A stretch of 64,000 bases of DNA from Vicinamibacteria bacterium (GTDB lineage: Bacteria; Acidobacteriota; Vicinamibacteria; Marinacidobacterales; Marinacidobacteraceae): contig CAXXLQ010000004.1 in assembly GCA_963668695.2 (NCBI GenBank), forward strand, positions 1,376,001 to 1,440,000, read 5' to 3'. Numbering within the stretch: the stretch's first letter is position 1; the number at the start of each line of letters is the position of its first letter. The notes beneath the pieces are model-generated. The model was not told where the DNA came from and did not search any database. It saw only the letters and a program-made list of their open reading frames with translations. A program made the position numbers and the translations under genes. Shown one piece after another: positions 1,760-64,000 of the stretch.

Positions 1760-2383
1760 ATAAAGTCACGCGGCATTCCCGAGCCAGAAGAGATGGTGGT
1801 CGGGTGACCCCGCCCCCCGTCCCTTCCGCTCCGGGGTCTCCGCGGTGCTTGGGCCCCGCTCCGGAAGCCCGAGCCAGAAGAGATGGTGGTCGGGTGACCC
1901 CGCCCCCCGTCCCTTCCGCTCCGGGGTCTCCGCGGTGCTTGGGCCCCGCTCCGGAAGCCCGAGCCAGAAGGGATGGTGGTCGGGTGACCCCGCCCCCCGT
2001 CCCTTCCGCTCCGGGGTCTCCGCGGTGCTTGGGCCCCGCTCCGGAAGCCCGAGCCAGAAGGGATGGTGGTCGGGTGACCCCGCCCCCCGTCCCTTCCGCT
2101 CCGGGGTCTCCGCGGTGCTTGGGGCTCCGGAAGCCCGAGCCAGAAGGGATGGTGGTCGGGTGACCCCGCCCCCCGTCCCTTCCGCTCCGGGGTCTCCGCG
2201 GTGCTTGGGCCCCGCTCCGGAAGCGACCGGCGATGCATCCCGGCTGAACCGCTACGCTCGGCGTTCCGATTGGGTCGGAATACACCCGGTATTCCTCCCG
2301 AATCGCGCCTTGTCAGCCGGGCGCCTCACCGCCAGTTCTCCCGGTGGGGGCCTCGGTGCTCACGTCACTTTACCCACAGGCTG
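1750..2383 (+). mobile_element. MITE copy M1, carrying a 446-bp tandem array and one 18-bp insert
   Basis: Ends CAGCCTGTG...CACAGGCTG. After removing 1779-2224 and 2332-2349 it aligns with the insert-free copy at 60337-60515. Confidence 0.88.
1779..2224. repeat. Tandem array of five ~90-bp units (90,90,90,86,90)
   Basis: Unit ccgagccagaag(a/g)gatggtggtcgggtgacccc...ccggaagc starts at 1779, 1869, 1959, 2049 and 2135. There are no unique spacers. Confidence 0.97.
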
Positions 2384-2393
2384 CTAACGGCGG

Positions 2394-3035
2394 ATGAGTT
2401 TTCTCGAGTTTGTGGCCGGGCGCTGGACCGAGATCCTGACCCTCACGCTCGAACACGTGGTGCTGGTCGTGATCTCCACGGTAGCCGGGGTGCTGATCGC
2501 GGTGCCGCTCGGGCTCGCCATCACCCGGGTACCCGCGCTCAGTCGGCCGGTACTGGGATTTGCCGGAGTCATCCAGACCGTGCCGTCCCTCGCGCTTTTC
2601 GGCCTGCTGATCCCGCTGCCCTTCATCGGGGGCATCGGCAGCCGGACCGCCATCATCGCGCTCGTTCTCTACGCGCTGCTGCCGATCCTCCGCAATACGG
2701 TGACCGGCGTGCGGCAGGTCGATCCGGCGATTCTGGATGCCGCGAACGGGATGGGAATGACCGACTGGCAACGGCTGACCCTCGTGGAGGTTCCCCTCGC
2801 GCTGCCCTCCATCTTCTCGGGCATCCGGATCGCGACGGTGGTCGGGATAGGCCTCGTGACGATTGCGGCCGCGGTCGGCGCTGGCGGTCTCGGATCGCTG
2901 ATCTTCCGCGGGCTGGCGATGCTTGATTCCCGGCTGCTCTTCGCCGGAGCGATACCCTCCGCGATCCTGGCGTTGATCGCGGACGGCGGGCTCGCGCTGC
3001 TCGAATCCCGTCTGGTTGCCTCGCGCGGTCCGTGA
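2394..3035 (+). CDS. Osmoprotectant ABC transporter permease
   Basis: Hydrophobic; QTVPSLAL, YALLPILRNT, EAA-like AILDAANGMGM, GAGGLG motifs. Confidence 0.92.
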   Translation: MSFLEFVAGRWTEILTLTLEHVVLVVISTVAGVLIAVPLGLAITRVPALSRPVLGFAGVIQTVPSLALFGLLIPLPFIGGIGSRTAIIALVLYALLPILRNTVTGVRQVDPAILDAANGMGMTDWQRLTLVEVPLALPSIFSGIRIATVVGIGLVTIAAAVGAGGLGSLIFRGLAMLDSRLLFAGAIPSAILALIADGGLALLESRLVASRGP

Positions 3036-3949
3036 CAAATCGAACTTCCGTGAACGAAGCCATCCGGCGCCGCAGTTTCCTTCGGCGTCTCGGGGCCACG
3101 GGCGCCCTGCTTGCGCCCGGACTCTTCGGAACGCGTTGCGGTCCCGGGGGTCCGTCGGCGGTGCTCGGGGCGAAGACGTATTCGGAACAGATCATCCTCG
3201 GCGAGCTGCTTTCGCGGTTTCTCCGGGCGGCCGGGCTCGCGGTTACCGAGCGGTTCCAGATGCAGACGTTCGTCCTTCACACAGCAATTGCCAACGGGGA
3301 TCTCGACTGCTACATCGAATACACCGGAACGTCCTATTCCGCGATCATGCACGAGACCTTCGTCGCCGGGCAGACCGCCGAGGAGATCTACCAGCGGGTG
3401 AAGGAGCTCTACCGGGAGCGCTTCGACCTTCGTCTCGGCCCGCCGATCGGTTTTTCGAACGACTACGTCCTTGCCGTTCCCCGGGACTTTGCGAGGGAGC
3501 GGGGCCTGCGGACGATTTCCGACCTGGCCCGTATTTCGGGGTATCTCTTCGTCGCTGGCTACGCGTTCTTCGAGAGGGCCGATGGCCTCCGCGGGATGAT
3601 GGACCACTACGGATTCGCCGAGATGCCGGAGTCCATCGAGGTCGAGGTGGACATGGTCTTCCAGGTGATGGAGGCGGGTCAGGCCGACGTGGCGGTGGGT
3701 AACTCCACCGACGGCCGGGTTGCCAAGCTCGACCTGCTCGTCCTCGAGGATGACCTCGGCTGGTTCCCGCCCTACGAATCCGCCCTGGTCTACCGCCCGG
3801 ACGCCCATCCCGCCGTGGCCGAGCTGGCCGAGCGCCTCGGCGGCGCCATCAGCACCGAGACGATGCGTGCGCTCAACCGCCGGGTGGACGTGGACGGCGA
3901 ACAGCCGGCGGAGGTCGCCGCCGAGTTCTTCGAGACGCTGACCGGCTGA
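3032..3949 (+). CDS. Glycine betaine/osmoprotectant ABC substrate-binding protein with Tat-like signal
   Basis: RRRSFL twin-arginine motif; GAKTYSEQIILG, YIEYTGT, LEDDLGWFPPY (OpuAC/OsmF type). Confidence 0.9.
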   Translation: MTNRTSVNEAIRRRSFLRRLGATGALLAPGLFGTRCGPGGPSAVLGAKTYSEQIILGELLSRFLRAAGLAVTERFQMQTFVLHTAIANGDLDCYIEYTGTSYSAIMHETFVAGQTAEEIYQRVKELYRERFDLRLGPPIGFSNDYVLAVPRDFARERGLRTISDLARISGYLFVAGYAFFERADGLRGMMDHYGFAEMPESIEVEVDMVFQVMEAGQADVAVGNSTDGRVAKLDLLVLEDDLGWFPPYESALVYRPDAHPAVAELAERLGGAISTETMRALNRRVDVDGEQPAEVAAEFFETLTG

Positions 3950-4079
3950 GAGCCGCCCGCCCGCTTTCCGGGTTCGGGAGCGTCATCTCCTGGAGATCGT
4001 CTGGGTCGGCCGCGGCTTCCCTCGTCCGGCGTCCGACCTCCAATCGTCCGGCGGGGGCCGATCACGCTAAAATGGCTAT

Positions 4080-4379
4080 ATGGAAAGCGCCAGTATTAGC
4101 GAAGCGAGGAACAAGTTGAGCGGCCTGCTCCGACGGGTCCGGCTCGGCGAGACGGTTCTGATTACGGATCGCGGTAAGCCGGTGGCCAGGATCGAGCCCT
4201 GCCTTTCTACGGGCGCCGAGGACCCCCAAGTCGCGGCGCTGCTCGCCCGGCCGGGGGTCGCCACGCCCGCGCGGGAGACGCTGGATCTCGCTGCCTTCTT
4301 GAAAACTCCCCTGCCGCGTCTGCCGGAGGGGGTCCGGGCCAGCGATGCGGTCTCGGCGGATCGGGACGAAGGCTGGTGA
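4080..4379 (+). CDS. Phd/YefM family antitoxin
   Basis: SISEARNKLSGLLRRVRLGETVLITDRGKPVARI; overlaps the PIN gene (GTGA). Confidence 0.9.
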   Translation: MESASISEARNKLSGLLRRVRLGETVLITDRGKPVARIEPCLSTGAEDPQVAALLARPGVATPARETLDLAAFLKTPLPRLPEGVRASDAVSADRDEGW

Positions 4380-4795: not shown

Positions 4796-4823
4796 CTCGC
4801 AGGGGCCGAGCGCGGCCTTCGCG

Positions 4824-5490: not shown

Positions 5491-5498
5491 CTTTCTCG

Positions 5499-8126: not shown

Positions 8127-8151
8127 CGGGGTTCCCGAACCGAACGCTCCG

Positions 8152-13944: not shown

Positions 13945-13967
13945 GAGGCGGTGGCAGCCTACCTGAG

Positions 13968-14217
13968 CAGCCGGTGGACAAAGTCACGCGGCCCAGTTCT
14001 CCGGTGGGGGCTCGAGCGGCGATCCATCCCGGCTGAAACAGTCCGCTTCGCGTCGTTCATCGTTGCGCTTCGGCCGAAATGCGCTCGGGCCAGTTCTCCC
14101 GGTGGGGGCTCCTCCCTCGCGCGCCTTGTCAGCCGGGCCCCCACCGGGAGGACTGGCCCCACCGGGAGAACTGGGCCTCCCCGCTCTCGGCGCTCACGCC
14201 ACTTTGTCCACCGGCTG
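13968..14217 (+). mobile_element. MITE copy M2 with four 17-18-bp inserts
   Basis: Perfect terminal inverted repeat cagccggtggacaaagt/actttgtccaccggctg. Length 250 = 179+17+3x18; inserts at 13993, 14090, 14139 and 14157. Confidence 0.92.
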
Positions 14218-14266
14218 CACCTGCCGAGCCCGCAATTGCCACTTCCGGACGGATAGAATTCCGGGG

Positions 14267-16371: not shown

Positions 16372-17130
16372 GTGATTCCTCGCGAATCCGGGGTGAGTGC
16401 CTGTTTCCCCGCCTTCAACGACGCCGGGTCCATCGGCTGGGTGGCTCATCGGGCACGCGAGGCCTTGCGGGGTACCGGTCGTGACTTCGAGATTCTGATC
16501 CTGAATGATGGAAGCGCTGACCGGACCGCCGAGGTCCTGGAGGTGCTCAGGGCCGAGATCCCGGAACTCAGGACGCTCCGGCACGCACAAAACCGGGGCT
16601 ACGGAGCCACCCTTCGGGATCTCTTCGCCGCGGCCCGGTTCCCGCTCGTCGCCTACACCGATGGCGATGGGCAGTTCGATCCCTTCGAACTCATCCGCCT
16701 GCTGGATGCTCTGAGTCCGGAAATCCAGTTGGTGAACGGCTACCGGGGGAGCCGCGCGGACGGCATGCTGCGGCGGTTTCTCGGCCCCCGCTTCCATCGG
16801 GTGGTGGCGGGGACCTTCGGGCTTCCGGATCTGCGCGATTGGGACTGCGACTTCCGGCTCTTCCGCCGGGACCTGCGCCTCGACGCTTCCATGACCTTCG
16901 ATGACGGGACCGCGGTGGTGGAATTCCTAGCCACGCTCGGCGATTCTGGTGTCCGCTACGCCGAGGTTGAAGTGAGCCACCGTGAACGCCGGGCGGGCGA
17001 TAGCCAATACTTCCGGCCCCGCTCCGTCGTTTCCGGCCACCGCAACCTCTTCCGGTTGTGGCGCAGGCGGGGATCCCCTCCGATCCGCTGGCGGGCATGG
17101 TTCCGAAGAAGCCGGCGCCGACCCGCTTAA
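16372..17130 (+). CDS. Glycosyltransferase family 2 (DPM1-like)
   Basis: PAFND, LNDGSADRT, NRGYG, TDGDGQF, D.DCDFRLF. Confidence 0.88.
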   Translation: MIPRESGVSACFPAFNDAGSIGWVAHRAREALRGTGRDFEILILNDGSADRTAEVLEVLRAEIPELRTLRHAQNRGYGATLRDLFAAARFPLVAYTDGDGQFDPFELIRLLDALSPEIQLVNGYRGSRADGMLRRFLGPRFHRVVAGTFGLPDLRDWDCDFRLFRRDLRLDASMTFDDGTAVVEFLATLGDSGVRYAEVEVSHRERRAGDSQYFRPRSVVSGHRNLFRLWRRRGSPPIRWRAWFRRSRRRPA

Positions 17131-17327
17131 CAGCCTGTGGTGAAACCCGCGTGAGCGCCGAGAGCGGTGAGGCGCCCGGCTGACAAGGCGCGTGAGGGAG
17201 GAATACCGGGTGTATTTCGACCGAAACGCAACGCAGAGCGCCGCGAAGCGCCAGTTCTCCCGGTGGGGGGGCGGTTCAGCCGGGATGCATCGCCGGTCGA
17301 ACGCCGCGTGGGTTTTGCCACAGGCTG
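17131..17327 (-). mobile_element. MITE copy M3 (179+18 bp) between convergent stop codons
   Basis: cagcctgtgg...ccacaggctg immediately after the GT2 TAA; 18-mer at 17251-17268. Confidence 0.92.
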
Positions 17328-17332
17328 TTTAC

Positions 17333-31161: not shown

Positions 31162-31344
31162 AGTGGCGTGAGCGCCGAGGCTGGCGAGGCGCCCGGCTGA
31201 CAAGGCGCGCGAGGGAGGAATACCTGGTGTATTTCGAGCGAAGCGCAACGATGAGCGCCTCACAGAGGCGCGGTTCAGCCGGGATGCATCGCCAGCCGAG
31301 CCCCCACCGGGAGAACTGGGCCGCGTGACTTTGTCCGCAGGCTG
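31148..31344 (-). mobile_element. MITE copy M4 (179+18 bp)
   Basis: cagcctgtggataaagt...actttgtccgcaggctg; 18-mer (reverse) at 31302-31319. Confidence 0.92.
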
Positions 31345-31386
31345 CTAACGCCTTCTCTTCATAATTGATCACCGATTGAGGTCTTG

Positions 31387-38143: not shown

Positions 38144-39170
38144 TCACGGGGTGACCTCCTCGTCCTCACCGGATCGTGGGGCGGGGTTCTTTCTCGCCGG
38201 GGCCTGATGCAGTGCCCGCGCCAGGTCGCCGCGCTGCCGCATCCGGTAACTGTTCCCCCGGATGTTCACGATGTGGCAGTGGTGGAGCAGCCGATCCAGC
38301 AGCGCCGCCGCCATCACCTCGTCCCCGAGGATCGTCCCCCACTCCTCGAACCCCTTGTTCGAAGTCAGCACCGTGGACGCCCGCTCGTAACAGCCTGTGG
38401 TGAAACCCACGTGAGCGCCGAGACCGGTGAGGCCCAGTTCTCCCGGTGGGGGTCCGGCTGACAAGGCGCGTGAGGGAGGAATACCAGGTGTATTTCGACC
38501 GAAACGCAACGATGAGCGGCGCGAAGCGACGCGGTTCAGCCGGGAGGGATCGCCGGTCGAACGCCGTGTGGGTTTTGCCACAGGCTGTTAACCGCTCGTT
38601 GATGAGCTGGAAGAACAACGTCGCCCCGTTCCGGGTCACCGGCAGGTAGCCGATCTCGTCCACCACCAGCAGCGCGGGGTGGGTGAGGACCCGCAGCCGG
38701 CGCCGCAACTGCCCCTTCGTCTCCGCCTCCTGGAGGGACCCGACCAGATCCCTCAGGGACCCGTAGTACACCCGCCGGCCCCTCTCCGCCGCCCGGATCG
38801 CCAGGCTGATCGCCAGGTGGGTCTTCCCCACCCCCGGAGGACCAAGGAACACCACGTTCTCCTTTCGCCGGAGGAAGTCCAGCTCGTGGAGCGAGTCGAT
38901 CTGCTCCCGGCGCAGGGAGGGCTGGAACGTGAAGTCGAAGTCCGCCAGCCTCTTCACCGCCGGAAGCCGGCTCGAACGCATCGCCGCCTCCAGACGACGG
39001 TTGTTCCGCAGCGCGATCTGTGCTCCCAGCAACTGCTCGATCGCTTCACTCCCACTGAGCGAACCGCTGGCTACCCTCCGGATCACCTCGTCCAGCGCTT
39101 CCAGAGCCCCCGGCATCTTCAGGTCCACCAACTGGCCGCTGATGCGTTCGTGGCGCGATACCGACGTCAT
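38144..39170 (-). pseudogene. istB: IstB helper ATPase interrupted by MITE M5
   Basis: GPPGVGKTHLA, LLVVDEIGYLP, FFQLINER | MITE | YERASTVLTSN..W..ALLDRLLHH..GNSYR. Confidence 0.93.
38391..38587 (-). mobile_element. MITE copy M5 (179+18 bp) inserted in istB
   Basis: cagcctgtgg...ccacaggctg splits the conserved INER/YER; 18-mer at 38434-38451. Confidence 0.95.
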
Positions 39171-45180: not shown

Positions 45181-45220
45181 AAAGGCCCGCCGGCTCCTTC
45201 CGGAGCCGACGGACCCTTTT
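45181..45220 (-). terminator. Hairpin terminator after TBDR2
   Basis: ggcccgccggctcc-ttcc-ggagccgacggacc flanked by A/T runs. Confidence 0.75.
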
Positions 45221-45240
45221 TGGTGGAAGACCCCGAAGGA

Positions 45241-48135: not shown

Positions 48136-48182
48136 GGGCCCCTCCGGAGTGGGGAAGGCAAAAAAAACGGGGTGCAAACCCG

Positions 48183-48197
48183 GCAACAGGTGCGCCA
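48183..48197 (-). promoter_or_regulatory. Putative sigma54 promoter of TBDR2
   Basis: TGGCGCACCTGTTGC. Confidence 0.7.
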
Positions 48198-48230
48198 GAG
48201 CCCCGGGACGCCGGAGCGCCCGGAACAAAG

Positions 48231-48443
48231 CTATCGGATTCCGGGGGTTGGATGCGAACGCCAGACGTCGAGACCGCCTGAAGGCGATGCTGGTGTCCAA
48301 ATTCCCGACCCCGGCGATCCGAAAATCCGGAACTCTGGAATCGGCCCGCGTGGCGCTTCCCGGCGATCGCTCTCGGCGCCGCAGCCCCAGGTCGTTACCA
48401 GCAGTACCGCCACTGGGACGGCGGCGCTTCGGGACGGGAGCAC
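48231..48443 (-). pseudogene. Duplicated 5' remnant of the multiheme cytochrome gene
   Basis: VLPSRSAAVPVAVLLVTTWGCGAESDRREAP vs MLPPRSATIAAALLLGTTWGCGDRSDRTESP; the upstream spacer and terminator are also homologous. Confidence 0.8.
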
Positions 48444-48476
48444 GCAGCGATCTTGGCCCAAGTTGCGCCCAAAAGG

Positions 48477-48513
48477 AAAGGCCCGCCGACCCCTTGCGGG
48501 GCCGACGGGCCTT
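48477..48513 (-). terminator. Hairpin terminator after TBDR3
   Basis: aaggcccgccgaccc...gggccgacgggcctt with a U-rich tail on the minus strand. Confidence 0.75.
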
Positions 48514-48535
48514 GGTGGTGGGTGACCCTACCGGG

Positions 48536-51430
48536 TCAGAAGGTAAGTCGCGCCGAGAACCCGATGGTTCTGCCTTTCAGATAGTCCACGACTCTCTGAT
48601 AGGGCACGACGGAATCCAGGATCTGGAAGTTGGTGATCGTGTTCGCGTTCAGGGCGTTGAAGAAATCCAGAATGATCTGCACCCGCGTCTGGTCCCCCAA
48701 GGGGAATGACTTGTCCATTCTGAAGTCCACGACTGTCACATTGTCGGATCGCTCAGAATTCGCTGCGGCCAGCCATGAGTAAACAGTCAGCTTACCGCCG
48801 TAGAGAGTATTCCGGTGCGTCGGTGAGTAGTTGAACCCGCTGATGTAGCGCATGGTGCCGGCCAAGCCGATCTCATACGGCAGAACGTAGCGCGCCGAAG
48901 ACTTCAACTGGAACGTGGTCGTCTTCTGGACGGTCGCAATGTCCTGGTCGTAGTTAATGAACCAGCCCTGTGCCGTCGGATCCGCCGAGAGCGGATTGCG
49001 GGCCGCCCACGAAGTGGACGAAGTTCCGGGGCTCCGGGGCTCCGAGCGCCACTGGTAGTCGAAGTAGACGTTGTAGAAGAAATTGTTCCGGAACCGTTTG
49101 TTCAGTGCGAGCGACAGGTTGTGGAAGTCCATGTTGCTCTCTCCGGCTGGGTGGTTCATCGTCAGGTTGTCCGATTTGCCCGCGAGTTCTTCCGGCATCA
49201 CCAGGTAGTTGAACGACCGGCTGTAGCCGGCCGGGCAGCCTTCGCAGGCCGAAAGCGTGATGGGCGTGTTCCGGCTGTTGAGTTGAATCTGGTTCAGCCC
49301 ACTCGACCAGGTATTCCGCATGCGTTTGTACACATAGGAAAGTCGGGTTCCGAGATCGGCGGTCAACTCATGTTCCACCGAAGCACTGACTTCGTCGGCA
49401 TAGGGAAGCGACCAGTTCGAGTCAATCGGAGTACCTGATCCTGCGCCGGCGCTGAAGGAGAGCTCGTCACCCAGTTCCGCGGTGGAATCGAGCACCGCAT
49501 TTCCATTCAGGTCGTTGAAGAGGTACCGAGCGGATGCCTGTCCTCCTGGGTTTGCCGAGCTGAGTCCCGTGCCGACATTCGAGTAGTACCGTCCGAAGTA
49601 CGCCTTGAAGACCGAGGATCCCTCGCCCGTCAGGTCATAGGTGAAGCCCACGCGCGGTGCGACATTCCAGTGCGTGTATGCGGTGGCTCCGGGGACGGCG
49701 ACGCCGGATCCGAAAACCTCGGTCAGGATCTGACTCTGGTCGCCTGGTAGTTCGAACTGGCAATTGAGCACATCCTGGCAGGCGGTTCCTGGGGAGTTGT
49801 CAGAAGACAGGTAACTCAGGGCCTGACTCCCGACGCGGAATCCAAGAGTTACCGTCAATCTGTCGTTGACGGTCCAGGTGTCCTGGGCGAACAAGTCCCA
49901 ATGCGTGTTCCGATTGTCGACGAGGTTTGGAACTCCGACAAGATTGACCTGATAGACGCCGTTGGGGTTGCCCTGGGTTGGGTCGTCGCGATACTGGAAG
50001 GCTCCCGAGTTCGTGTTCCAGCCCGAAAGCTCGCTGTCAATCTGCCAGTCCCAGCCGAACTTGAAGTCATGGCTTCCATCACCGATCGGGACGTAGTAGT
50101 TGAACTGACCGGTGCTCTGCGGCTTCCAGCGGTTGCGAGTGAACGGCTGCCAGCCGGCGCCCGAACGGACGCTGTTCGTCAGATTGATTCGGGGTTCGTT
50201 GCCGTTGATCGGGTCCGCCTTCGGCGTCATCGGCCAGGTCGTGCCCATGTGGCCGACCATCATGTTGCTGTAGAGCCGGTCACTCCAAACGCGCTGCCAT
50301 TCGGCCTTGTGGAGCCAGATCCAGTAATCCTGGGCGAGCACCGATGCGGCCGGAATCGTGCTTGAAATGCTCCGATTGGGCTTGCGCTTCCAGGACCAGG
50401 TGGAAAAGCCGATGAACTGGTCGCGCTCGGTGATCTGATAGTTCAGCTTGGTGGTGAAGATGTCGAAATCGCCGATGTCGGTGCCGGTGTCGATCGGCTG
50501 CCCGGACACGGCGGTGTCAATGAAGAAGTTGTTGTACGCCACGTAGAACCACGCCTTGTCCCGGACGATCGGGCCGCCGAGGTCCAGATGGAACTCGTAG
50601 AACTTGAGCACCGGAGCCGCCGAGGCGCCGCGGGCGTCCAGCTCGCTGTCGAAGTTGTCGGCGATCATGTCCTCGGGGTTCCAGGCGCCGCTCTGGAGGC
50701 CGGAGAAGTCGTTGCCACCGGTCTTGACGGTGGTCTGGATCTGCGCTCCCGGGGTGGACATTTCCACATCGGCGCCCTGGGCAGAGACCTGGAACTCCTC
50801 CATGGCGTAGTAGTCGTAGTAGCCGCCAGCGGAGCCGGAGCCCTCGGTGGTGTTCACGCCCTCGTAGAGGACCCGGTTCTGGCTGCGCACCCCGAAGGTC
50901 TCGTACATGGACTGCTGGCTCTTGTGGGAGCCGCCAACGTCGTAGCCCTGGACCCGAATTCCCGGGCTCTGGTGCAGCACCGCCCACATGTCGGTGGCCG
51001 TTGGCACTTCGTCGAGCTGGGTCTTGTCGAAGGTCGCCGCCACTCCGGTGGACTTCACGTCCACTACCGGCGATTCGCCGGTCACCGTGACCGTCTCGGC
51101 CACCGTGGCGATCTGCATGTCGGCGTTCACGCTGAACGTGGCGCCGGTGACGACCCGGATGTCTTCGAACAAAATGGTCTGGAAACCGCTCAGTTCGAAC
51201 TGGATGTTGTAGTCGCCTGGGGGCAGCGCCGGGAACCGGTACGAACCGTCCACGTCGGTGGTCGCGTTCCGGCCGCCGATGATGGCCTCACCCGAGAGGG
51301 TGACGGACACTCCGGGGAGGGCGAGTCCCTGGGCATCGCGCGCCGCACCTTCAAGGCGTCCGTACTGCTGCTGGGCAAGTGCCGGGACGGCAAACGCCAC
51401 GAGCAGAAGAGCGAGAAGAATCTTTCTCAT
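48536..51430 (-). CDS. Oar-like TonB-dependent receptor (TBDR3)
   Basis: Paralogue; AAGGAGG RBS; ends RLTF. Confidence 0.9.
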   Translation of the reverse strand: MRKILLALLLVAFAVPALAQQQYGRLEGAARDAQGLALPGVSVTLSGEAIIGGRNATTDVDGSYRFPALPPGDYNIQFELSGFQTILFEDIRVVTGATFSVNADMQIATVAETVTVTGESPVVDVKSTGVAATFDKTQLDEVPTATDMWAVLHQSPGIRVQGYDVGGSHKSQQSMYETFGVRSQNRVLYEGVNTTEGSGSAGGYYDYYAMEEFQVSAQGADVEMSTPGAQIQTTVKTGGNDFSGLQSGAWNPEDMIADNFDSELDARGASAAPVLKFYEFHLDLGGPIVRDKAWFYVAYNNFFIDTAVSGQPIDTGTDIGDFDIFTTKLNYQITERDQFIGFSTWSWKRKPNRSISSTIPAASVLAQDYWIWLHKAEWQRVWSDRLYSNMMVGHMGTTWPMTPKADPINGNEPRINLTNSVRSGAGWQPFTRNRWKPQSTGQFNYYVPIGDGSHDFKFGWDWQIDSELSGWNTNSGAFQYRDDPTQGNPNGVYQVNLVGVPNLVDNRNTHWDLFAQDTWTVNDRLTVTLGFRVGSQALSYLSSDNSPGTACQDVLNCQFELPGDQSQILTEVFGSGVAVPGATAYTHWNVAPRVGFTYDLTGEGSSVFKAYFGRYYSNVGTGLSSANPGGQASARYLFNDLNGNAVLDSTAELGDELSFSAGAGSGTPIDSNWSLPYADEVSASVEHELTADLGTRLSYVYKRMRNTWSSGLNQIQLNSRNTPITLSACEGCPAGYSRSFNYLVMPEELAGKSDNLTMNHPAGESNMDFHNLSLALNKRFRNNFFYNVYFDYQWRSEPRSPGTSSTSWAARNPLSADPTAQGWFINYDQDIATVQKTTTFQLKSSARYVLPYEIGLAGTMRYISGFNYSPTHRNTLYGGKLTVYSWLAAANSERSDNVTVVDFRMDKSFPLGDQTRVQIILDFFNALNANTITNFQILDSVVPYQRVVDYLKGRTIGFSARLTF

Positions 51431-51475
51431 GGTCCCTCCTTCAGGGGAGCGTATAAGGAACAGGAAACTAATTGG

Positions 51476-51490
51476 GCAAGAAGCGTGCCA
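51476..51490 (-). promoter_or_regulatory. sigma54 -24/-12 promoter of TBDR3
   Basis: TGGCACGCTTCTTGC, a perfect TGGCACG-N4-TTGC consensus, 45 nt before ATG. Confidence 0.8.
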
Positions 51491-51701
51491 TGGAACGGGC
51501 CGTGCCGCGAACGTCGGAAAGCGCCTTTTTTCAACACGATGTAGTGAGTTGTGGCGGCCCCTTTCACGGCTCGATCCAAAATTTTAGATCCAGCGGTGCC
51601 GGTGGGGAACCGCGCCCCAACGAGGATGTTCGCGGCTCCGGATGCTCGGTCTCGGACTGCCGTCCGGAGGTGCCGTCCCGCCCCCTCGATCGGCGGCAAA
51701 C

Positions 51702-51740
51702 AAAAAAGGCCCGCCGGCTTCCGGAGAAGCCGACGGGCCT
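51702..51740 (-). terminator. Hairpin terminator after TBDR4
   Basis: aggcccgccggcttc-cgga-gaagccgacgggcct with a T6 tail on the minus strand. Confidence 0.82.
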
Positions 51741-51770
51741 CGGGGTCCTGGTGGGATCCCTCTCAGCAGG

Positions 51771-54662
51771 TTAGAAGGTAAGCCTCACCGAGATCCCGAC
51801 GGTGCGTCCCTTGAGGTAATCCACGATCCTCTGATACGGGACCACCGAGTCAAGCATCTGGAAGTTCGTGATCGTGGCCGCATTCAGGGCGTTGTACAGA
51901 TCAAAGATCGCCTGCACCCGCATTGTGTCTCCGAGCGCGAATGACTTGTCCACTCGCAAGTCAATCACGGTCACGTTGGCCGAGCGATTCTCGTTCATGT
52001 ATCCGAGCCACATATATGGCTTCAGGGCGCCGTCGTACAGATTGAGCCGATGGGTTGGAGCGAAGTTGAAACCGCTGATGTAGCGGTAGGTGCCGGCCAG
52101 CCCAATCTCATACGGGAGCATGTAGCGCGCCGACGACTTCAACTGGTAGGTGCTCGTTTTCTGAATCGTCGGGATGTCCTGGTCGTAGTTGATGAACCAC
52201 CCCTGCGCGGTCGGATCCGAGGAAAGGGGGTTTAGCGCCCCCCACGAGGTCGAGGAAGTTCCCGGGCTTCGGGGCTCGGTGCGCCACTGATAGTCGAAGT
52301 AGATGTTGTAGAAGAAGTTGTTTCGGAACCGCTTGTTCAGCGCCAGCGACAGGGTGTGGAAGTCCATGTCGCTCTCCCCCGCCGGGTGATTCGTCGTCAG
52401 GTTGTCGGACTTGCCCACGAGATGTTCAGGGGGCACCATCAGGTTGAACGACCGGCTGTACCCGGCGGGGCACCCGTCGCAGGTCGCAACGGTGGCTGCC
52501 GTGTTCCGGTTGTTGAGCTCAATCAGGTTGACGCCGCTCCAGGTGTTCCGCATCCTCTTGTACACATAGGAAACCCGCGCCCCGAGATCGGCGGTCACCT
52601 CGTGCTCCAGGGAGGCGCTCAACTCGTCGGCGTAAGGCAACGACCAGTCCGAATCGATGGGAGTTCCGGAGCCGGCCCCGGCCGCGAACGCAAGCTCTTC
52701 GCCCAGTTCGGAAATGTCGTCCAGCACCGCGTTCTGGTTCTGGTCAAGGAACCGGTAGGTGCCGGATGCCTGACCGCCCGGATTCGCCGAGGACAGCCCG
52801 GTCCCGACGTTCGAGTAGTAGCGCCCGAAGTACGCCTTGAACACCGAGGAACCCTCACCGGTCAAGTCGTAGGTGATGCCGACCCTCGGCGCGAGGTTCC
52901 GGTGGGTGTACACAGTACCGCCGGGAATCGTTCCACCCTCGCCGAACACGCCCCGCAGAACTTCGCTCTGGTTGGCTGGGAGTTCAAACTGGCAGAGCAG
53001 CGCTTCGTGACAGGCGCCACCCGGTGAGTTGTCGGATTCCAGGTAGGAGAGCTGCTGGCTGCCGAAACGGACCCCGAACAGGACCGTGAGCCGGTCGTTC
53101 ACCGTCCAGACGTCCTGAGCGAACAGGTCCAGATGCATGTTCCGGTCGTCGGTCAAGTTGGGGACGCCGATGACCGCGACGCGGTCTACATTGTGCGGCC
53201 GCCCCTCCGAGGCGTCGTCGAAATACCGGAATGCGCCGGAGTTGGAGTTCCACCCGAAGAATTCGGAGTCAATCTGCCAATCCCACCCGAACTTGAAGTC
53301 GTGACTTCCGGAGCCGATCGGTATGTAGTAGTTGAACTGCCCGGTGCTCTGCGGCTTCCAGCGCTTGCTCGTGAACGGCTGCCATCCGGCGCCCGACCGA
53401 ACGCTCGTCGTGGCCTCGATCCGCGGCTCGTTTCCGTTGATCGGGTCGCCCTTCGGGACCATCGGCCAGACGGTGCCCATGTGGCCGATCATCATGTTGC
53501 TGTAGAGCCGGTCGCTCCAGACACGCTGCCACTCGGCCTTGTGCAGCCAGATCCAGTAGTCCTGCCCAAGAACCGATGCGGCCGGAATCGTGCTGGAAAT
53601 GTTCCGATTGGGCTTGCGCTTCCAGGACCAGGTGGAGAACCCGATGAACTGGTCGCGCTCCGTGATCTGGTAGTTCAACTTGGTCGTGAAGATGTCGAAG
53701 TCCCCGATGTCGGTGCCGAGGCTCTGGTCCTGCCCGGAAACCGCGGTGTCGATGAAGTAGTTGTTGTAGGCAACGTAGAACCACGCCTTGTCCCGGACGA
53801 TGGGGCCGCCGAGATCGAGGTGGAACTCGTAGAACTTGAGCACTGGCGCCGGGGAGCCGCCGCGGGCCTCGAGTTCGCTCGAAAAGTTGTCGCCGATCCA
53901 GTCCGCCGGGTTCACGTGGCCGCTCTGGAGGCCGGAGAAGTCGTTGCCGCCGGTCTTGACGGTGGTCTGGATCTGAGCCCCCGGGGTGGACATCTCCACG
54001 TCGGCGCCCTGAGCCGAGACCTGGAATTCTTCCATCGCGTAGTAGTCGTAGTACCCGCCGGCGCTGCCGGAACCCTCGGTGGTGTTCACTCCCTCGTAGA
54101 GGACCCGGTTCTGGCTGCGCACGCCGAAGGTCTCGTACATGGACTGCTGGCTCTTGTGCGAACCGCCCACGTCGTAGCCCTGGACCCGGATTCCCGGGCT
54201 CTGGTGCAGCACCGCCCACATGTCGGTGGCCGTCGGCACTTCGTCGAGCTGGGTCTTGTCGAAGGTCGCCGCCACTCCGGTGGACTTCACGTCCACTACC
54301 GGCGATTCGCCGGTCACCGTGACCGTCTCGGCCACCGTGGCGATCTGCATGTCGGCGTTCACGCTGAACGTGGCGCCGGTGACGACCCGGATGTCTTCGA
54401 ACAAAATGGTCTGGAAACCGCTCAGTTCGAACTGGAGCAGGTAGTCGCCCGGGGGCAGCGCCGGGAACCGGTACGAACCGTCCACGTCGGTGGTCGCGTT
54501 CCGGCCGCCGATGATGGCCTCACCCGAGAGGGTGACGGACACTCCGGGGAGGGCGAGTCCCTGGGCATCGCGCGCCGCACCTTCAAGGCGTCCGTACTGC
54601 TGCTGCGCGAGCGCCGGGACGGCGAACGCCACGAACAGAAGAGCGAGAAGAATCTTTCTCAT
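51771..54662 (-). CDS. Oar-like TonB-dependent receptor (TBDR4)
   Basis: Paralogue; AAGGAGG RBS before ATG 54662; ends RLTF. Confidence 0.9.
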   Translation of the reverse strand: MRKILLALLFVAFAVPALAQQQYGRLEGAARDAQGLALPGVSVTLSGEAIIGGRNATTDVDGSYRFPALPPGDYLLQFELSGFQTILFEDIRVVTGATFSVNADMQIATVAETVTVTGESPVVDVKSTGVAATFDKTQLDEVPTATDMWAVLHQSPGIRVQGYDVGGSHKSQQSMYETFGVRSQNRVLYEGVNTTEGSGSAGGYYDYYAMEEFQVSAQGADVEMSTPGAQIQTTVKTGGNDFSGLQSGHVNPADWIGDNFSSELEARGGSPAPVLKFYEFHLDLGGPIVRDKAWFYVAYNNYFIDTAVSGQDQSLGTDIGDFDIFTTKLNYQITERDQFIGFSTWSWKRKPNRNISSTIPAASVLGQDYWIWLHKAEWQRVWSDRLYSNMMIGHMGTVWPMVPKGDPINGNEPRIEATTSVRSGAGWQPFTSKRWKPQSTGQFNYYIPIGSGSHDFKFGWDWQIDSEFFGWNSNSGAFRYFDDASEGRPHNVDRVAVIGVPNLTDDRNMHLDLFAQDVWTVNDRLTVLFGVRFGSQQLSYLESDNSPGGACHEALLCQFELPANQSEVLRGVFGEGGTIPGGTVYTHRNLAPRVGITYDLTGEGSSVFKAYFGRYYSNVGTGLSSANPGGQASGTYRFLDQNQNAVLDDISELGEELAFAAGAGSGTPIDSDWSLPYADELSASLEHEVTADLGARVSYVYKRMRNTWSGVNLIELNNRNTAATVATCDGCPAGYSRSFNLMVPPEHLVGKSDNLTTNHPAGESDMDFHTLSLALNKRFRNNFFYNIYFDYQWRTEPRSPGTSSTSWGALNPLSSDPTAQGWFINYDQDIPTIQKTSTYQLKSSARYMLPYEIGLAGTYRYISGFNFAPTHRLNLYDGALKPYMWLGYMNENRSANVTVIDLRVDKSFALGDTMRVQAIFDLYNALNAATITNFQMLDSVVPYQRIVDYLKGRTVGISVRLTF

Positions 54663-56474: not shown

Positions 56475-56478
56475 CGTC

Positions 56479-59210: not shown

Positions 59211-59289
59211 CTCGCCCTCATCCAGCCAAGGGCTGCGGAGCGCGCGACGCCATCCGTTTCCGGCGGCCGAGTTCCGCCACCAACGCGCT

Positions 59290-59895: not shown

Positions 59896-60336
59896 CGGCG
59901 TTCCTCAGTGGACGTTGCAGGTCGGAGTCTCGCACTCCGTGCGGACGCGGAGCGAGTGCCATCCCCGAGGATGACAGCCAGGATCGCGACGACTGCAGCT
60001 TGGACGCGCGGACTGCCTTCACGCTGGTTGATGCTCGTTGGACATCGCATTGGTCGCACTCGCACTCAATCCCGTTCCGCCCGATAGGGCAGGGTACGGG
60101 AGCAAGACAACTCCGTGCCAGGGGAGCGGGGGACTGGGTGGCTCTTGCTGCAACCGCGGTGCGCTTTTTGGGGGACGCGGGTGGTGCGGGTTTGACCTAC
60201 CTCCGGGGCTCCCGTCCGGGCGGAGCTGTCCGGCACGGATGGCGGCCCCGGGGAACAGTTGCTGCGCGGCTCGATCCCGCTGCCGCGGGGCCGGGTGGCC
60301 GGCGAGGAATCGCCAGCCACCCCGCAGGGTGCTTAA

Positions 60337-60515
60337 CAGCCTGTGGCAAAACCCACGCGGCGTTCGACCGGCGATGCATCCCGGCTGAACCGCGTCGCTT
60401 CGCGCCGCTCATCGTTGCGTTTCGGTCGAAATACGCCCGGTATTCCTCCCTCACGCGCCTCGTCAGCCGGGCGCCTCGCCGGTCTCGGCGCTCACGTGGG
60501 TTTCACCACCGGCTG
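60337..60515 (+). mobile_element. MITE copy M6, insert-free 179-bp reference
   Basis: ttaa-cagcctgtgg...ccaccggctg-tta; abuts the TBDR5 stop codon. Confidence 0.93.
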
Positions 60516-63389
60516 TTAGAAAGTCAGGCGGAGACCGATCTTGGCCGCGCGCGGGTCGAGCGCGGCAATCACGTCGTTGTAGCTGGAGCCGGTACGGAGG
60601 TTGAAGTTCGTGACCGCGTTGGAGTTCAGGGCGTTGTACACGTCCACCATCGCGGTGAGGAGCTGTCCGTTTCCGAGCTCGAACGCCTTTTCGATACGGA
60701 AGTCCGCGAGCGTGACCGCTTCCGAGCGGTTTTCATCGAGGTTCGAGAGGAAGATCGCCTGAGTACCGGATCCCGGGATCGAGACCCGCTGGATCGGGGC
60801 CCAGGGCCAGCCGCTCTGGTAGCGCACGTTGCCGGACAACGCCACACCGTAGGGCAGTGTGTAGCGGGCGAGCAGCCGTCCGTTCCAGTTCGTGGTCTCC
60901 TGGCGGAAGGGCACGTCGAGGCTGTGGTTTTGCCAGATCGTGCCGTGGCCGTCGGATCCGACGTCGATCGGGTCTGCCGTCAGCGGGCTGCGCGATTCGC
61001 CTGACGCGGCGCGGTACTCGTCACGCCACTGGTAGTCGAAACTCGCCTGCACGAAGAAGCCGCCGGTGAACCGCCGGTTCGCGGCGATCTGGAACGTGTC
61101 GTAACTGGCCGTCATGTCCGGGAAGGTGTCGGTCTGGATGTCAACCGCATCTGCGACATCGTTCGGCACGCGCTGCACGTTGATCGGCGCCCCGGTCAGG
61201 GCGTTGGTCGGGCACTCGAAGTCCGTGCCGCAGGAGATGCCGCGGCCGTCGAGCAGGGCGGTCTGCTGCGGGACGTTCCACTGGCCGCTGTCCGCATTGA
61301 GCTGCTTGCGCACGAAGGACGCCCGGAACGCGGTGTCGGCGACGAGTTCGTGTTCGAAGGAGACGCTGAACTCGTCCACGTATTCCTTTTGGAGGTCCGG
61401 GTTCACCGGGGTCCCCACCGTGCGGAGCGTGGTGCCGGTGGCGCCGCTGGTGGCCCGGATGGTGCCGAGTTCCTGCGCGCTGTCATAGAGCCCGTTCGCG
61501 TTCTGGTCGAGGAAATCGAACCGGACCCAGGCCACGTTCGCCGGGTCGGCGCGACGGTGCCCGTCAGCCAGGTTCATGTAGTACCGGCCGTAATGGCCTT
61601 TCAGCACCGTTCCCGGGGCGATCTCATAGGTCGCGCCCAGGCGCGGCGCCCAGGTGTTCCAGGTGACGACGGTCTGCCCCTCGGTCACGCCGGTCGGGAA
61701 GAAGTCGGCGAACAGCGGGTTCGACTCCGAGTCCAGGAAGTGGGTCCGCTGCTGCCCGAAGCGCACTCCGATGTTCAGCGTGAGGCGGGCATGCGGCCGC
61801 CAGGTGTCCTGCGCGAACAAATCGTGGTGAGTGTTCCGCGAATCGGCGTTGATCTGGCCGTCGGCGGGCATGCTGAACAGCGCGATCTGATCCACATCGT
61901 TTGGTCGTCCCTGGGTGCTGTCGTCAATGTAACGAACATGGCCGGAGTTCGAGTTGGCCCCGAACTTCCGGCTGTCGATCTGGAAGTCGTAGCCGACCTT
62001 GAAGTCGTGGCTGCCCAGGAACTCGGGAACGTAGTGGTCGGCTGTCGCGGTCACCTGCGGCTTCCAGCGCTCGAAGGTGAACGGCGGCGTGCCGGTGACG
62101 TTGGTGTTCCAGCCCGCTCCGGTGTGGATGCCGGTCGCCTGATCGAAGCGGGGCGGGTTCGACTCCGGGTCCACCGCCGGCACCATCGGCCAGCCGAACC
62201 CGAAGTGCTTGACGGCCAGGGTTGTGAAGGTGCGGTCGTCCCAAACGCGCTGCCACTCGCCCTTGTGCGCCCAACTCCAGCTTGCCTGGGCCAGAATCGA
62301 GTCCGGGCCGATCGTGTTCGAAAGGCTGCGCTGGGGCTTTTCCTTCAGTTGGTAGTTCGAGTAGGCGATGAGCTGATCCCGGCTCGTCAACTGGGCAGTC
62401 ACCTTGCCGCCGAATTGATCGAAGTCGCCCAGATCGGTGGCCAAGTTCGGATCCACTCCCGAAACCTGCTTGTCGATCCGGAAATGGTTGTAGAACCCGT
62501 AGAACCACGCTCGATCTTCGACGATCGGTCCGCCGAGGTCGGCGTGCGCTTCCCAGAAGAGCAGGTTCGGATTGCCGGTGAAGTTGCGGGCTTCGAGCTC
62601 GCTGTCCACGTTGTTGCCGACGAAGCTCGCGTGCTCGTAGTCACCGTGGATCAGGCTGCTGAACTCGTTGCCGCCGCTCTTCATGGTCATGATGACCATC
62701 GAACCGGGCCCGGTCATCTCGACATCCGATCCGGCGGCCGAAGTGGTGAATTCCTCGATGGAGTAGTAGTCGAAATAGAAGCCGGTGCCGCTCTCGCCCT
62801 CGGTGGTGTCCACGCCGTCGGCGAGGATCCGGTTCTGACGGCGGATACCGAAGCTCTCGTAACCCGTCTGCTGGCTCTTGTGGCTGCCGCCGACGTCATA
62901 GCCGCGCATCCGGACGCCCGGAGTCTGGGCGAGCACCGCCCAGACATCGGTCGCCGAGGGCACCTCGTGGAGGGCCTCGGTTCCGAAGTGCGTGGAGAGC
63001 GCCGTGGTGCGGACGTCCACGACCGGCGCCTCACCGGTGACCGTCACGGTTTCGGCGACGGTGGCTACGTCGAGCGTCGCCGGGACGGTGATGGTGCGGT
63101 TGCCTTCGACGATGATGCCCTCGCGCAGGAGGGTCTGGAATCCAGCGATCTCGAACCTGAGGTCATAGGCGCCGCGGCGGAGCGAACGGAACCGGTAGGA
63201 GCCGTCGCTCAAGGTAACGGCCGTCTGTCCGGTGATGAGAGCCTCACCGGAGAGGGTGACGGCCGCTCCCGGTATCGCGAGGCCCTGTGAGTCGGTGACC
63301 CGGCCCTCGATTTCTCCGGCGGTCTGGCCGAAGGCAGTGAAGCCGGCCATGACCGTGAAGGCGAGTGCCAGCAGGATGAGTCGTTTCAT
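60516..63389 (-). CDS. Oar-like TonB-dependent receptor (TBDR5, most divergent)
   Basis: Same architecture; YDVGGSHKSQQ plug motif; ends RLTF. Confidence 0.9.
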   Translation of the reverse strand: MKRLILLALAFTVMAGFTAFGQTAGEIEGRVTDSQGLAIPGAAVTLSGEALITGQTAVTLSDGSYRFRSLRRGAYDLRFEIAGFQTLLREGIIVEGNRTITVPATLDVATVAETVTVTGEAPVVDVRTTALSTHFGTEALHEVPSATDVWAVLAQTPGVRMRGYDVGGSHKSQQTGYESFGIRRQNRILADGVDTTEGESGTGFYFDYYSIEEFTTSAAGSDVEMTGPGSMVIMTMKSGGNEFSSLIHGDYEHASFVGNNVDSELEARNFTGNPNLLFWEAHADLGGPIVEDRAWFYGFYNHFRIDKQVSGVDPNLATDLGDFDQFGGKVTAQLTSRDQLIAYSNYQLKEKPQRSLSNTIGPDSILAQASWSWAHKGEWQRVWDDRTFTTLAVKHFGFGWPMVPAVDPESNPPRFDQATGIHTGAGWNTNVTGTPPFTFERWKPQVTATADHYVPEFLGSHDFKVGYDFQIDSRKFGANSNSGHVRYIDDSTQGRPNDVDQIALFSMPADGQINADSRNTHHDLFAQDTWRPHARLTLNIGVRFGQQRTHFLDSESNPLFADFFPTGVTEGQTVVTWNTWAPRLGATYEIAPGTVLKGHYGRYYMNLADGHRRADPANVAWVRFDFLDQNANGLYDSAQELGTIRATSGATGTTLRTVGTPVNPDLQKEYVDEFSVSFEHELVADTAFRASFVRKQLNADSGQWNVPQQTALLDGRGISCGTDFECPTNALTGAPINVQRVPNDVADAVDIQTDTFPDMTASYDTFQIAANRRFTGGFFVQASFDYQWRDEYRAASGESRSPLTADPIDVGSDGHGTIWQNHSLDVPFRQETTNWNGRLLARYTLPYGVALSGNVRYQSGWPWAPIQRVSIPGSGTQAIFLSNLDENRSEAVTLADFRIEKAFELGNGQLLTAMVDVYNALNSNAVTNFNLRTGSSYNDVIAALDPRAAKIGLRLTF

Positions 63390-63528
63390 TGGGAAGTTTT
63401 CTCCTTGGTTTGTTGGAAAAGCGGCCTCGCGCCTCGCGTCTGGGGTGGAACCGGTGTTTCTTGAATTCGCGTGGTTTCCGGGGCCCGGGGCGGTCGCGGC
63501 GCATTGCCGTGCATGTCCTAAAGAAGGC

Positions 63529-63543
63529 GCAAGGGATGCGCCC
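63529..63543 (-). promoter_or_regulatory. Putative sigma54 promoter of TBDR5
   Basis: GGGCGCATCCCTTGC (GG-N10-GC), 140 nt upstream of the start. Confidence 0.5.
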
Positions 63544-63744
63544 GGGTCCTGGGCGTCCGGCCAACAGCCGTGCGGAGTGGGGATCCCCTGGTACCGGTCA
63601 TAAACCCCTCCGAACGGCGCCGACTCGGACGCTCCGGTGTTCCGAATCCCGTATCCAGCGCGCCGGTCCGATTCAGGAATCCCCGCCGCGATTCATCGCC
63701 CCGGAGCGCACCGCACCTGTTTTCTGAACACCCGGACGCCCTAA

Positions 63745-64000
63745 CAGCCGGTGGTGGAACCCAGGCGGCGTTCGACCGGCGATGCATCCCGGCCAAACAG
63801 CCTGTGATGAAACCCGCGCGGCCCAGTTTTCCCGGTGGGGGCTCGGCCGGCGATTCATCCCGGCTGAACCGCGTCGCTTCGCGCCGCTCATCGTTGCGTT
63901 TCGGTCGGAATACACCCGGGCCAGTTCTCCCGGTGGGGGCTCCTCCCTCACGCGCCTTGTCAGCCGGGCCCCCACCGGGAGGACTGGCCCCACCGGGAGA
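63745..64000 (+). mobile_element. Nested MITEs M7a (63745-63797) and M7b (63798 to edge), with four 18-bp inserts
   Basis: Two successive left ends; 18-mers at 63823, 63921, 63970 and 63988 (truncated). Confidence 0.88.

Follow-up and report, generated by a model that had tools for sequence, protein, structure and literature searches.

The closest described systems are the small dispersed repeats (SDRs) SDR4 to SDR6 of Nostoc and Anabaena, which Elhai et al. (Genome Res 18:1484) reportedly described in 2008 as units of 21 to 27 nt that insert without target duplication. How elements too short to contain transposase ends move has been an open question ever since that description. In the available portion of PMC5861425, the HIP1 palindrome is reported as the insertion site of SDR5, and no SDR is reported outside the Nostocaceae among HIP1-rich cyanobacteria; the SDRs of Elhai et al. 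2008 are also discussed in the available portions of PMC2884548 and PMC3116915. Other short repeats include the REP/REPIN elements, which the accessible text of PMC3116915 and PMC3733652 describes as mobilized by RAYT (Y1) transposases, and the BOX elements of Streptococcus pneumoniae, which appear in Table 1 of the accessible part of PMC3184786.

The 18-base repeat CCAGTTCTCCCGGTGGGG is present in 1,288 exact copies in the 4.1 Mb of the source genome (G000, an uncultured marine acidobacterium, 92% complete) and in 1,631 near-exact copies (at most 2 mismatches), with the reversed 18-mer, used as a control, giving 0 copies genome-wide at the same threshold. It is among the smallest mobile DNA elements seen. 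A reading of its letters shows no palindrome and at most a short stem-loop, CCC-GGT-GGG, with few base pairs. A flank logo in which each flank cluster was counted once contained information only at positions -2, -1, and +1 to +3, and the 18-mer is probably the core of a nonautonomous mobile unit of about 20 to 22 nt, G/S-CCAGTTCTCCCGGTGGGG-GC. The initial annotation had named the Nostoc-type SDRs as precedent, and the choice was apt: like them, the 18-mer is very short, high in copy number, dispersed, present or absent within homologous sequence, nested in other repeats and palindromes, sometimes tandem, free of target duplication (as is reported for the SDRs), and without a known enzyme. It differs in having a core of 18 nt, or 20 to 22 nt with converted flanks, which falls outside the length of 21 to 27 nt reported for SDRs, and in residing in the phylum Acidobacteriota (class Vicinamibacteria) in an unrelated host MITE. 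The comparison with the SDRs is one of description and not of sequence or hairpin features. No account of the element was found in the literature on Marinacidobacterium or on MITEs and repeats of Acidobacteria and sponges. No Rfam family was matched in the window (the whole 64-kb stretch of DNA that was analyzed).

The window contained 10 full 18-mers (at most 2 mismatches) and two partial ones, all within copies of a TA-flanked hairpin MITE of about 185 bp with inverted ends of 12 nt or more, and none of 100 shuffles of the window sequence contained the 18-mer at the same threshold. The copies listed in the initial annotation were thus recovered as 10 matches, a 17-nt copy read at 13993 to 14009, and a copy at 63988 cut by the window end. 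The empty reference copy, M6 (60334 to 60518, plus strand), forms a long hairpin (-55.2 kcal/mol, z -5.9). MITE M1 (approximate boundaries 1748 to 2387, plus strand) is enlarged by an array of about five copies of a 90-nt unit at 1778 to 2225 and has an 18-mer with 0 mismatches at the rare site E (2332 to 2349, plus strand; MITE alignment). MITE M2 (13966 to 14218, plus strand), both edges of which were confirmed in contigs from three DNA runs, has three loaded sites, with the 17-nt copy that has lost one C at site A (13993 to 14009, plus strand; sequence reading and alignment), a motif match at site C (14090 to 14107, plus strand), and a tandem pair at site D (14139 to 14174, minus strand; copies at 14139 and 14157), the first of which is a T>C variant. 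No match to M2 was found in the plasmid collection. Three further MITEs, identified from repeat matches and alignment, each hold one 18-mer that was placed by motif match and alignment: M3 (17128 to 17330, minus strand; 185 + 18 nt) at site B in the direction opposite to that of the MITE (17251 to 17268, plus strand), M4 (31145 to 31347, minus strand) at site A (31302 to 31319, minus strand), and M5 (38388 to 38590, minus strand) as a single copy at site D (38434 to 38451, plus strand). M7b (63798 to 64000, plus strand; repeat match and alignment) ends at the window edge and contains 18-mers at 63823 (A, plus strand), 63921 (C, plus strand), 63970 (D, minus strand), and 63988 (D), the last of the two D copies being partial.

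Alignment of the seven window MITE copies confirmed, as had been proposed, five internal sites, a net gain of 18 nt per filled site, and one site with 0, 1, or 2 tandem 18-mers. Orientation is fixed per site. At the junctions, GT, TAT, or GGT is exchanged for strings of the 18-mer+GC type; inserts usually arrive as the 18-mer plus GC, and 0 to 3 target bases are replaced. M2 and M7b are loaded at identical sites and have the T>C variant in common, in agreement with the earlier view that loaded MITEs propagate. The 18-mer itself has neither terminal inverted repeats nor a target-site duplication, whereas the host MITE has both. BOX elements have a variable number of boxB modules, and the two are alike in being MITE-like and in containing a short module in varying number. 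The 18-mer is unlike such a module in occupying at least six sites and both orientations, in occurring also in other repeat families and in a gene, and in using different sites across genera. Like REP/REPIN elements as described in the accessible text of PMC3116915 and PMC3733652, it is short and extragenic, has thousands of copies that frequently form inverted pairs, and is a target of insertion sequences; unlike them, it is not an imperfect palindrome of 20 to 40 nt, has no GTAG or CGTC tag, and inserts inside other repeats.

The initial claim that the 18-mer lies only in MITEs held within the window and failed genome-wide, where 301 of the 1,631 near-exact copies were outside HSPs of the window MITE family, mostly in REP-like hairpins. 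The flank was changed in all 61 REP-like hairpins with an 18-mer, and no empty one had the flank seen in the most frequent filled form, which upholds the proposed tie between insertion and flank change. The initial annotation had also asked whether the 18-mer enters genes in frame, and it does so in an RND-transporter gene (G000 C4:394435), where it is present in G000 and G001, whereas of the 15 orthologues from relatives that were examined, 14 are shorter by exactly these 18 nt. The empty allele reads GAGCCCG-CG-CGGGATG and the filled one GAGCCCG-GC+18(rc)-CGGGATG; the insertion point is the center of the palindrome CCCGCGCGGG, and the flanks are without homology to any donor context. This gene, the sole clean filled/empty case in unique DNA, defines the insertion event. 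Two other loci in unique contexts (L038 and L040) have an 18-mer common to 2 to 4 species and no clean empty allele. Neither the filled MITE sites nor the RND gene showed a target duplication, and the unit boundaries were the same across unrelated contexts (MITE, REP-like hairpin, and gene). Insert orientation showed no replichore bias, and a lagging-strand single-stranded DNA route therefore gains no support. A footprint or the solo ends of a larger element were rejected as the source of the repeat, the halves occurring outside full copies only 19 (left) and 98 (right) times versus about 1,400 to 1,650 times within them.

The 18-mer is restricted taxonomically, being present in all 15 genomes of the genus and in 4 of the 6 remaining family genera and in none of the 16 genomes from two sister families or 200 other genomes of the phylum. 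Of 41 independent assemblies, 21 contain it, as do contigs from runs of four studies; the one exact match in viral contigs is at about chance level by a rough estimate. Its sequence is identical across five genera, and it stays exact between genera with diverged MITE backbones. Carrier genomes contain from 1 to 1,566 copies, and near-complete assemblies of species of one genus are about 100-fold apart (G010, 15; G008, 692). The many near-complete genomes with loads of 1 to about 1,600 mean that phylogenetic profiling could find the enzyme. In two genomes of other genera, G019 and G018, the identical 18-mer occupies different sites in the homologous MITE, and comparison of their MITEs revealed one 18-mer nested inside another. 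In the orthologous M2 MITE of G001, two 18-mer sites differ and site D has a single copy, and a 400-kb comparison yielded three further 18-mer indels inside syntenic blocks. The earlier idea of a separately mobile unit is borne out by the different sites across genera, the REP-like hairpins, and the clean gain of 18 nt in a unique gene.

G000 contains roughly 460 to 800 MITE copies with only about six main 18-mer sites, so many 18-mer copies were inherited and not inserted. MITE haplotypes are mosaic, with sites A, B, C, D, and E' in every combination, and site occupancy is near random on the MITE backbone tree. Site A, filled in 165 of 458 copies, requires 113 changes on that tree (shuffle mean, 135), which was built from about 160 columns and on which change counts are blind to gain versus loss. 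Paired, structure-preserving insertion was rejected in favor of general loading, since the same-orientation pair A-C co-occurs more (odds ratio, 5.4) than A-D (3.0) or C-D (2.5). As this element illustrates, smaller parasites can remodel MITE interiors, with consequences for repeat annotation and for the assembly of such genomes. Contigs of runs X1, X4, and X9 end at MITE edges, and because short-read contigs break at the MITE, within-population polymorphism is not visible in them; contigs of X17 come from an RNA library and are no measure of transcription.

Among candidate movers, RAYT was rejected, as the Y1_Tnp profile, which finds matches in 6 of 14 genomes, gave 0 in G000 and, in departure from the REP/REPIN-RAYT system, none in G004, G018, or G019, and Y1_Tnp was unrelated to copy number across 26 genomes. 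A reverse transcriptase was likewise rejected, G000 having no RVT_1 match; the RNA templating suggested initially is left unsupported, as is any particular insertion mechanism. IS621, of the IS110 family, has a bridge RNA, and REP sequences were reportedly described by Tobes and Pareja in 2006 as landing sites of IS110/IS1111-type elements. The insertion of IS110-family elements of relatives into the 18-mer is a new observation here: among 22 IS110 copies examined, at least 7 insert specifically into it at a constant point (CCAGTTCTCCCGGTGG|IS|GGGG), where a 2-nt core is repeated. As with REP landing sites, a short repeat is the specific target of an IS110-family element with the 2-nt core at both junctions, but the precedent covers who exploits the 18-mer and not how it spreads. 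The IS110 left end matches no Rfam family, and in six of those copies it contains conserved segments that match both strands of the 18-mer in a guide-like manner. The lineage thus offers a repeat paired in nature with programmable IS110 recombinases.

On balance, the 18-mer appears to be an ultrasmall, nonautonomous, SDR-like mobile unit that is also multiplied passively on loaded MITEs. A sequence-specific activity supplied in trans would act at G|G(C/T)-type sites and insert the unit there in a single orientation, mostly in hairpin-forming DNA (the arms of MITEs, REP-like hairpin stems, and short GC palindromes), replacing 0 to 3 target bases without target duplication. Transposition of loaded MITEs would account for most copies, 18-mers would probably pass between MITE copies by gene conversion, and reinsertion or slippage could generate the tandem copies. 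From these patterns we infer a dedicated trans-acting enzyme, copying in rather than cutting out, and gene conversion. Spread without a dedicated enzyme, as a by-product of replication and recombination in which template switching or break repair carries the 18-mer between hairpin repeats and biased gene conversion takes it through the roughly 460 to 800 MITEs, is unlikely: it would suit hosts that are long hairpins, flanks converted together with the insert, mosaic haplotypes with all site combinations, the occurrence of both partial and tandem copies, and the lack of an enzyme in profile searches, but it sits poorly with identical unit boundaries in MITE, REP-like hairpin, and gene, with an RND insertion lacking flanking homology, and with an exact 18-mer kept across genera despite diverged MITE backbones. 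Still less probable is spread by, or as a by-product of, bridge-RNA-guided IS110-family recombinases that recognize the 18-mer. The single insertion position in at least 7 of 22 copies and the guide-like left ends of six speak for this, but the IS ends are unlike the 18-mer, an 18-bp duplex circle is an implausible donor in view of the circle intermediates of IS110, and copy number is not tracked by IS110 across 26 genomes, which led to its rejection as the mover; G019 has 70 18-mers and no IS110 match, and G000 has 1,566 and a single IS110 of a different subtype that is not in an 18-mer.

A selected functional motif (a protein-binding, uptake, or RNA-processing signal), its identity kept by selection and not by mobility, is a marginally more remote prospect again. 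Identity across five genera is what selection would produce, and opposed copies fold into perfect stems within MITE transcripts or single-stranded DNA; yet the 18-mer arrives by block insertion and not by point mutation, copies in unique contexts show decay, the copy difference within a genus is about 100-fold (G010 and G008), and only 2 to 3 of 1,480 arrays are in coding sequence, the block insertion and rarity in genes also speaking against a DNA uptake sequence. We give hardly any credence to a static MITE module, ancestrally multicopy and changed by deletions only, or to an assembly artifact. All 10 full window copies lie inside MITEs in an orientation fixed per site, as a static module would have them, but the non-MITE copies, the copy in the RND gene, and the different sites in other genera contradict it, and the independent assemblies and runs from four studies speak against an artifact. 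It is possible, if rather doubtful, that the 18-mer represents a second lineage of very small mobile elements with an independent origin, in which a conserved enzyme of this acidobacterial family writes a patch of about 20 nt into G|GC-like hairpin sites by new chemistry, exchanging 0 to 3 bases and creating no duplication, and in which evolution has adapted IS110 bridge-RNA elements to land on the patch. Inverted 18-mers bracket genes in 64 cases, because MITEs occupy most intergenic gaps.

The 18-base repeat CCAGTTCTCCCGGTGGGG (the 18-mer) is a real, very abundant, and independently inserting element of ultra-small size. A pattern search of the window returned 10 copies at two or fewer mismatches and none in 100 shuffles; a 17-nt version at position 13993 was read from the sequence, and one more copy is incomplete where the window end truncates it. 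Pattern search, reading, and alignment showed all of the 18-mer coordinates in the initial annotation to be correct. The MITE that hosts these copies is ~185 bp long, has the ends (A/G)CAGCCTGTGG...CCACAGGCTG(T/C) and, in most copies read, TA on both flanks, and is predicted to fold into a long hairpin (-55 kcal/mol, z -5.9). Alignment of the seven window MITE copies, the basis for the internal sites and junctions, bore out the proposed insert lengths (every filled site is a net gain of 18 nt) as well as the lack of target duplication and the altered adjoining bases. Five internal sites were likewise recovered, each fixed in one orientation relative to the MITE. With [18] denoting one copy, site A changes from GGC|GT|TCG to GGC[18]GC TCG, site C from GG|TAT|TCC to GG G[18]GC TCC, and site E from CCG|GT|CTC to CCG[18]GC CTC, and site D is a clean insertion at GGC|GCC that holds 0, 1, or 2 copies. 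A separate 90-nt unit is repeated about five times at 1778-2225, in MITE M1, 3 nt to the right of site A; genome-wide, it occurs at 55 loci in 1 to 9 tandem copies, nearly all at the same MITE position. The window also contains three tandem 3.3-kb paralogous genes and a fourth, diverged copy (45200-54600 and 62000-63300), with an inverted relative at 33900-35200, which are unrelated to the 18-mer.

The source genome (G000; 4.10 Mb, 4 contigs, 92% complete, 9% contamination) contains 1,288 exact 18-mers, 278 with one mismatch, and 65 with two; the reversed motif, used as a control, had no matches at two or fewer mismatches, 10 at three, and 126 at four. These copies form 1,480 arrays, comprising 1,336 single copies, 140 doubles, and 4 that are longer. 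Contig C1 (144 kb) partly duplicates contig C4, with stretches at 100% identity (for example, C1:39316-40616 equals C4:393800-395100), so the copy counts are slightly inflated, and this repetition agrees with the 9% contamination or redundancy figure. Once the 18-mers were removed in silico, 458 non-overlapping MITE copies aligned over at least 165 nt, and at least one 18-mer was present in 350 of these and none in 108. The MITE is an imperfect palindrome, and BLAST therefore aligned some copies reversed; after orientation correction, and with flanks written in the 18-mer direction, there were 328 arrays at site A (CGGC|GCTCG), 321 at site C (CCGGG|GCTCC), 245 at site D (GAGGC|GCCCGG), 215 at site E' (CCGG or GCGG|GCGAGG), 65 at site B (AGCG|GGGCGG), and 19 at site E. 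Doubles made up 135 of the 205 arrays in the largest site D flank cluster. In the predicted fold of a loaded MITE, opposed 18-mers base-pair in the combinations A-D2 and C-D1 (-92 kcal/mol); co-occurrence statistics across the 458 copies point to general loading and not specific pairing.

Occupancy was mapped on a FastTree phylogeny of the 458 MITE backbones, from which the main-site columns (A, B, C, D, and E') had been removed. Site A showed 113 changes for 165 filled copies (shuffle mean, 135), site C 129 for 203 (150), site D 116 for 162 (133), site E' 109 for 146 (123), and site B 32 for 48 (46). Inheritance of occupancy is weak and the pattern otherwise near random, on a tree that is short and on which gain and loss are indistinguishable. 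Loaded MITEs also propagate, as had been suggested; this is shown by haplotypes held in common (A-C-D2, for example, occurs in 14 copies) and by a T>C variant carried by the first copy at site D.

No copies had been seen outside MITEs in the window; genome-wide this does not hold, as 301 of the 1,631 copies in G000 lie outside HSPs of the MITE family, many of them in a family of REP-like hairpins. The empty hairpin, CCGG-TCT-KM-AGA-CCGG, has 126 matches, or ~63 loci given that both strands of the palindromic pattern were counted, and the filled forms are CCGG[18]GCCT.. (46 instances) and CCGG[18]CCCT... (15 instances). None of the filled hairpins retains the original TCT and none of the ~63 empty loci has the GCCT flank; therefore, the flank change arrives together with the insert. 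The 18-mer enters these hairpins on either strand, always following CCGG. Across 140 flank clusters, counted once each, flank information is confined to G at -2, G/C at -1, G at +1, C at +2, and C/T at +3, and the mobile unit is sharply bounded at ~20 to 22 nt. A REP-like family with two hairpins (..GGGAACGCCGGTCTGAAGACCGGCATCGCGGCC..), located at C4:481899-482012 (L005:1001-1114) and in many other places, hosts 18-mers.

The clean proof of insertion comes from a gene. Of all 1,480 arrays, 2 to 3 passed a screen requiring a long open frame with coding-type GC3 to either side. The 18-mer at C4:394435 (duplicated on C1) lies inside an RND-transporter gene, where it reads in frame as PHRENW, and this case answers the earlier question of whether the 18-mer enters genes in frame. 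When the orthologous stretch was aligned in 15 relatives, the insert was present in G001, the closest (97% identity), and exactly 18 nt were missing in the other 14 (G008, G004, G006, G007, G013, G012, G010, G014, G005, G003, G011, G009, G019, and G021). The empty form in G008 is GAGCCCG-CG-CGGGATG and the filled form in G000 is GAGCCCG-GC-CCCCACCGGGAGAACTGG-CGGGATG; in the element direction, CG in the middle of the palindrome CCCGCGCGGG is replaced by [18]+GC. The event is minimally described as 18 nt plus one neighboring substitution, and comparison of the filled and empty alleles revealed neither duplication nor homology with a donor context of any kind. Within a stop-free span of 1,021 codons, whose GC3 is of coding type on both sides, a REP-like hairpin holds an 18-mer at C4:1820432 (L037, C4:1819800-1821100); this may be a second in-gene insertion.

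Window MITE M2 is present at the corresponding locus in G001 and absent from G009 and G008. The G001 copy differs from that in G000 by a 93-nt unit in place of the 17-mer and one copy in place of two; it holds one copy of the 90-nt unit of M1. A 400-kb syntenic comparison of these two genomes (~95% identity) contained three 18-mer indels within aligned blocks, one of them at a site unused in G000. MITE turnover between them is very high, with dozens of 180- to 670-bp MITE blocks found in one species only (G001 C17:1000001-1400000, L058-L077, versus G000 C4:1.22-1.57 Mb). In other genera (G019 and G018), the identical 18-mer occupies different positions of the homologous MITE, as in G019, where the AT left unpaired in the empty form gives way to GGCGATGC[18]GCCCCGG. 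Up to six copies lie in one G018 MITE, and the 18-mer also occurs within REP-like hairpins of G018's own; at L027:150-420, an 18-mer+GC is nested in a second 18-mer, where it takes the place of the T in the CCC-GGT-GGG loop. This nested arrangement has been propagated in REP-like units that recur in tandem every 92 nt.

At one or fewer mismatches, the 18-mer is present in all 15 of the other genus members examined (8 to 776 copies) and in the family genera g2, g4, g5, and g6, and is absent from the three genomes of g3 and g7 and from 16 genomes of two sister families; the exact 18-mer was found in none of 200 further genomes in a sample of the phylum. A viral contig from IMG/VR has a single exact match (L129:4467-4484), roughly the chance expectation by a rough estimate. 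Differences in copy number between species are more than an assembly effect, with 15 copies in G010 (2 contigs), 87 in G014 (1 contig), and 692 in G008 (1 contig). Sequencing runs containing the M2 locus include sponge metagenomes. In three DNA runs from three studies, contigs extend exactly to both MITE edges, where population polymorphism is unreadable, and short contigs reproduce the tandem site D pair; the 18-mer is therefore not an assembly artifact.

We lean toward the 18-mer being a trans-mobilized, sequence-defined unit, for two reasons: unrelated targets show the same insert boundaries, and genera with MITEs ~20% divergent carry one identical sequence. Together these are the mark of a conserved recognition machinery. 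The main rival explanation, enzyme-free template switching with gene conversion among hairpin repeats, seems unlikely. Movement by IS110 is rated as very improbable, since the ends of these elements bear no resemblance to the 18-mer and the number of IS110 copies does not track that of 18-mers. The RNA templating raised as a possibility in the initial annotation gained no support from a search of G000 for reverse transcriptase. A RAYT (Y1 transposase) mover, a larger parent element as the source, and a replication-strand bias of 18-mer orientation were each tested and unsupported.

The 18-mer is a variant of a rarely described kind of element. As far as citing papers describe them, the small dispersed repeats (SDRs) of Nostocaceae are the closest kind, and the 18-mer works like an SDR, although it is shorter and occurs in a different phylum. 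The passages concerned describe SDRs as ~20 bp in length, at times in tandem, and perhaps mobile (PMC2884548), give the HIP1 palindrome as a possible insertion site of SDR5 and report no SDR from HIP1-rich cyanobacteria other than Nostocaceae (PMC5861425), and treat SDR origin as still open in 2011 (PMC3116915). The 18-mer is defined here by its junction rule, 18+GC replacing 0 to 3 nt. It lacks the features by which REP/RAYT elements and MITEs are defined.

The 18-mer itself serves IS110 elements as a landing pad, a role that REPs have elsewhere. One IS110-family subtype has the ends CTATAGGATC...GGA(A/G)AGT, and all six examined copies (G004 and G009) lie inside an 18-mer, as CCAGTTCTCCCGGTGG|IS|GGGG; a further G008 element brings the total to 7 of the 22 IS110 loci inspected (L083:1227-2778 in G009 and L081:1220-3232 in G004; also L094, L095, L101, L102, and L090). 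Insertion is at one fixed position, with a 2-nt core repeated. Conserved in the non-coding left ends of the six copies are CCGCCGGGAGTA and GCCCCGGTGC, matches to the two 18-mer strands beside the insertion point; judged from these matches, they may be bridge-RNA target guides, and a search of Rfam gave no match in the left end. G000 has one IS110, of a different subtype, which lies at L005 in the REP-like family with two hairpins.
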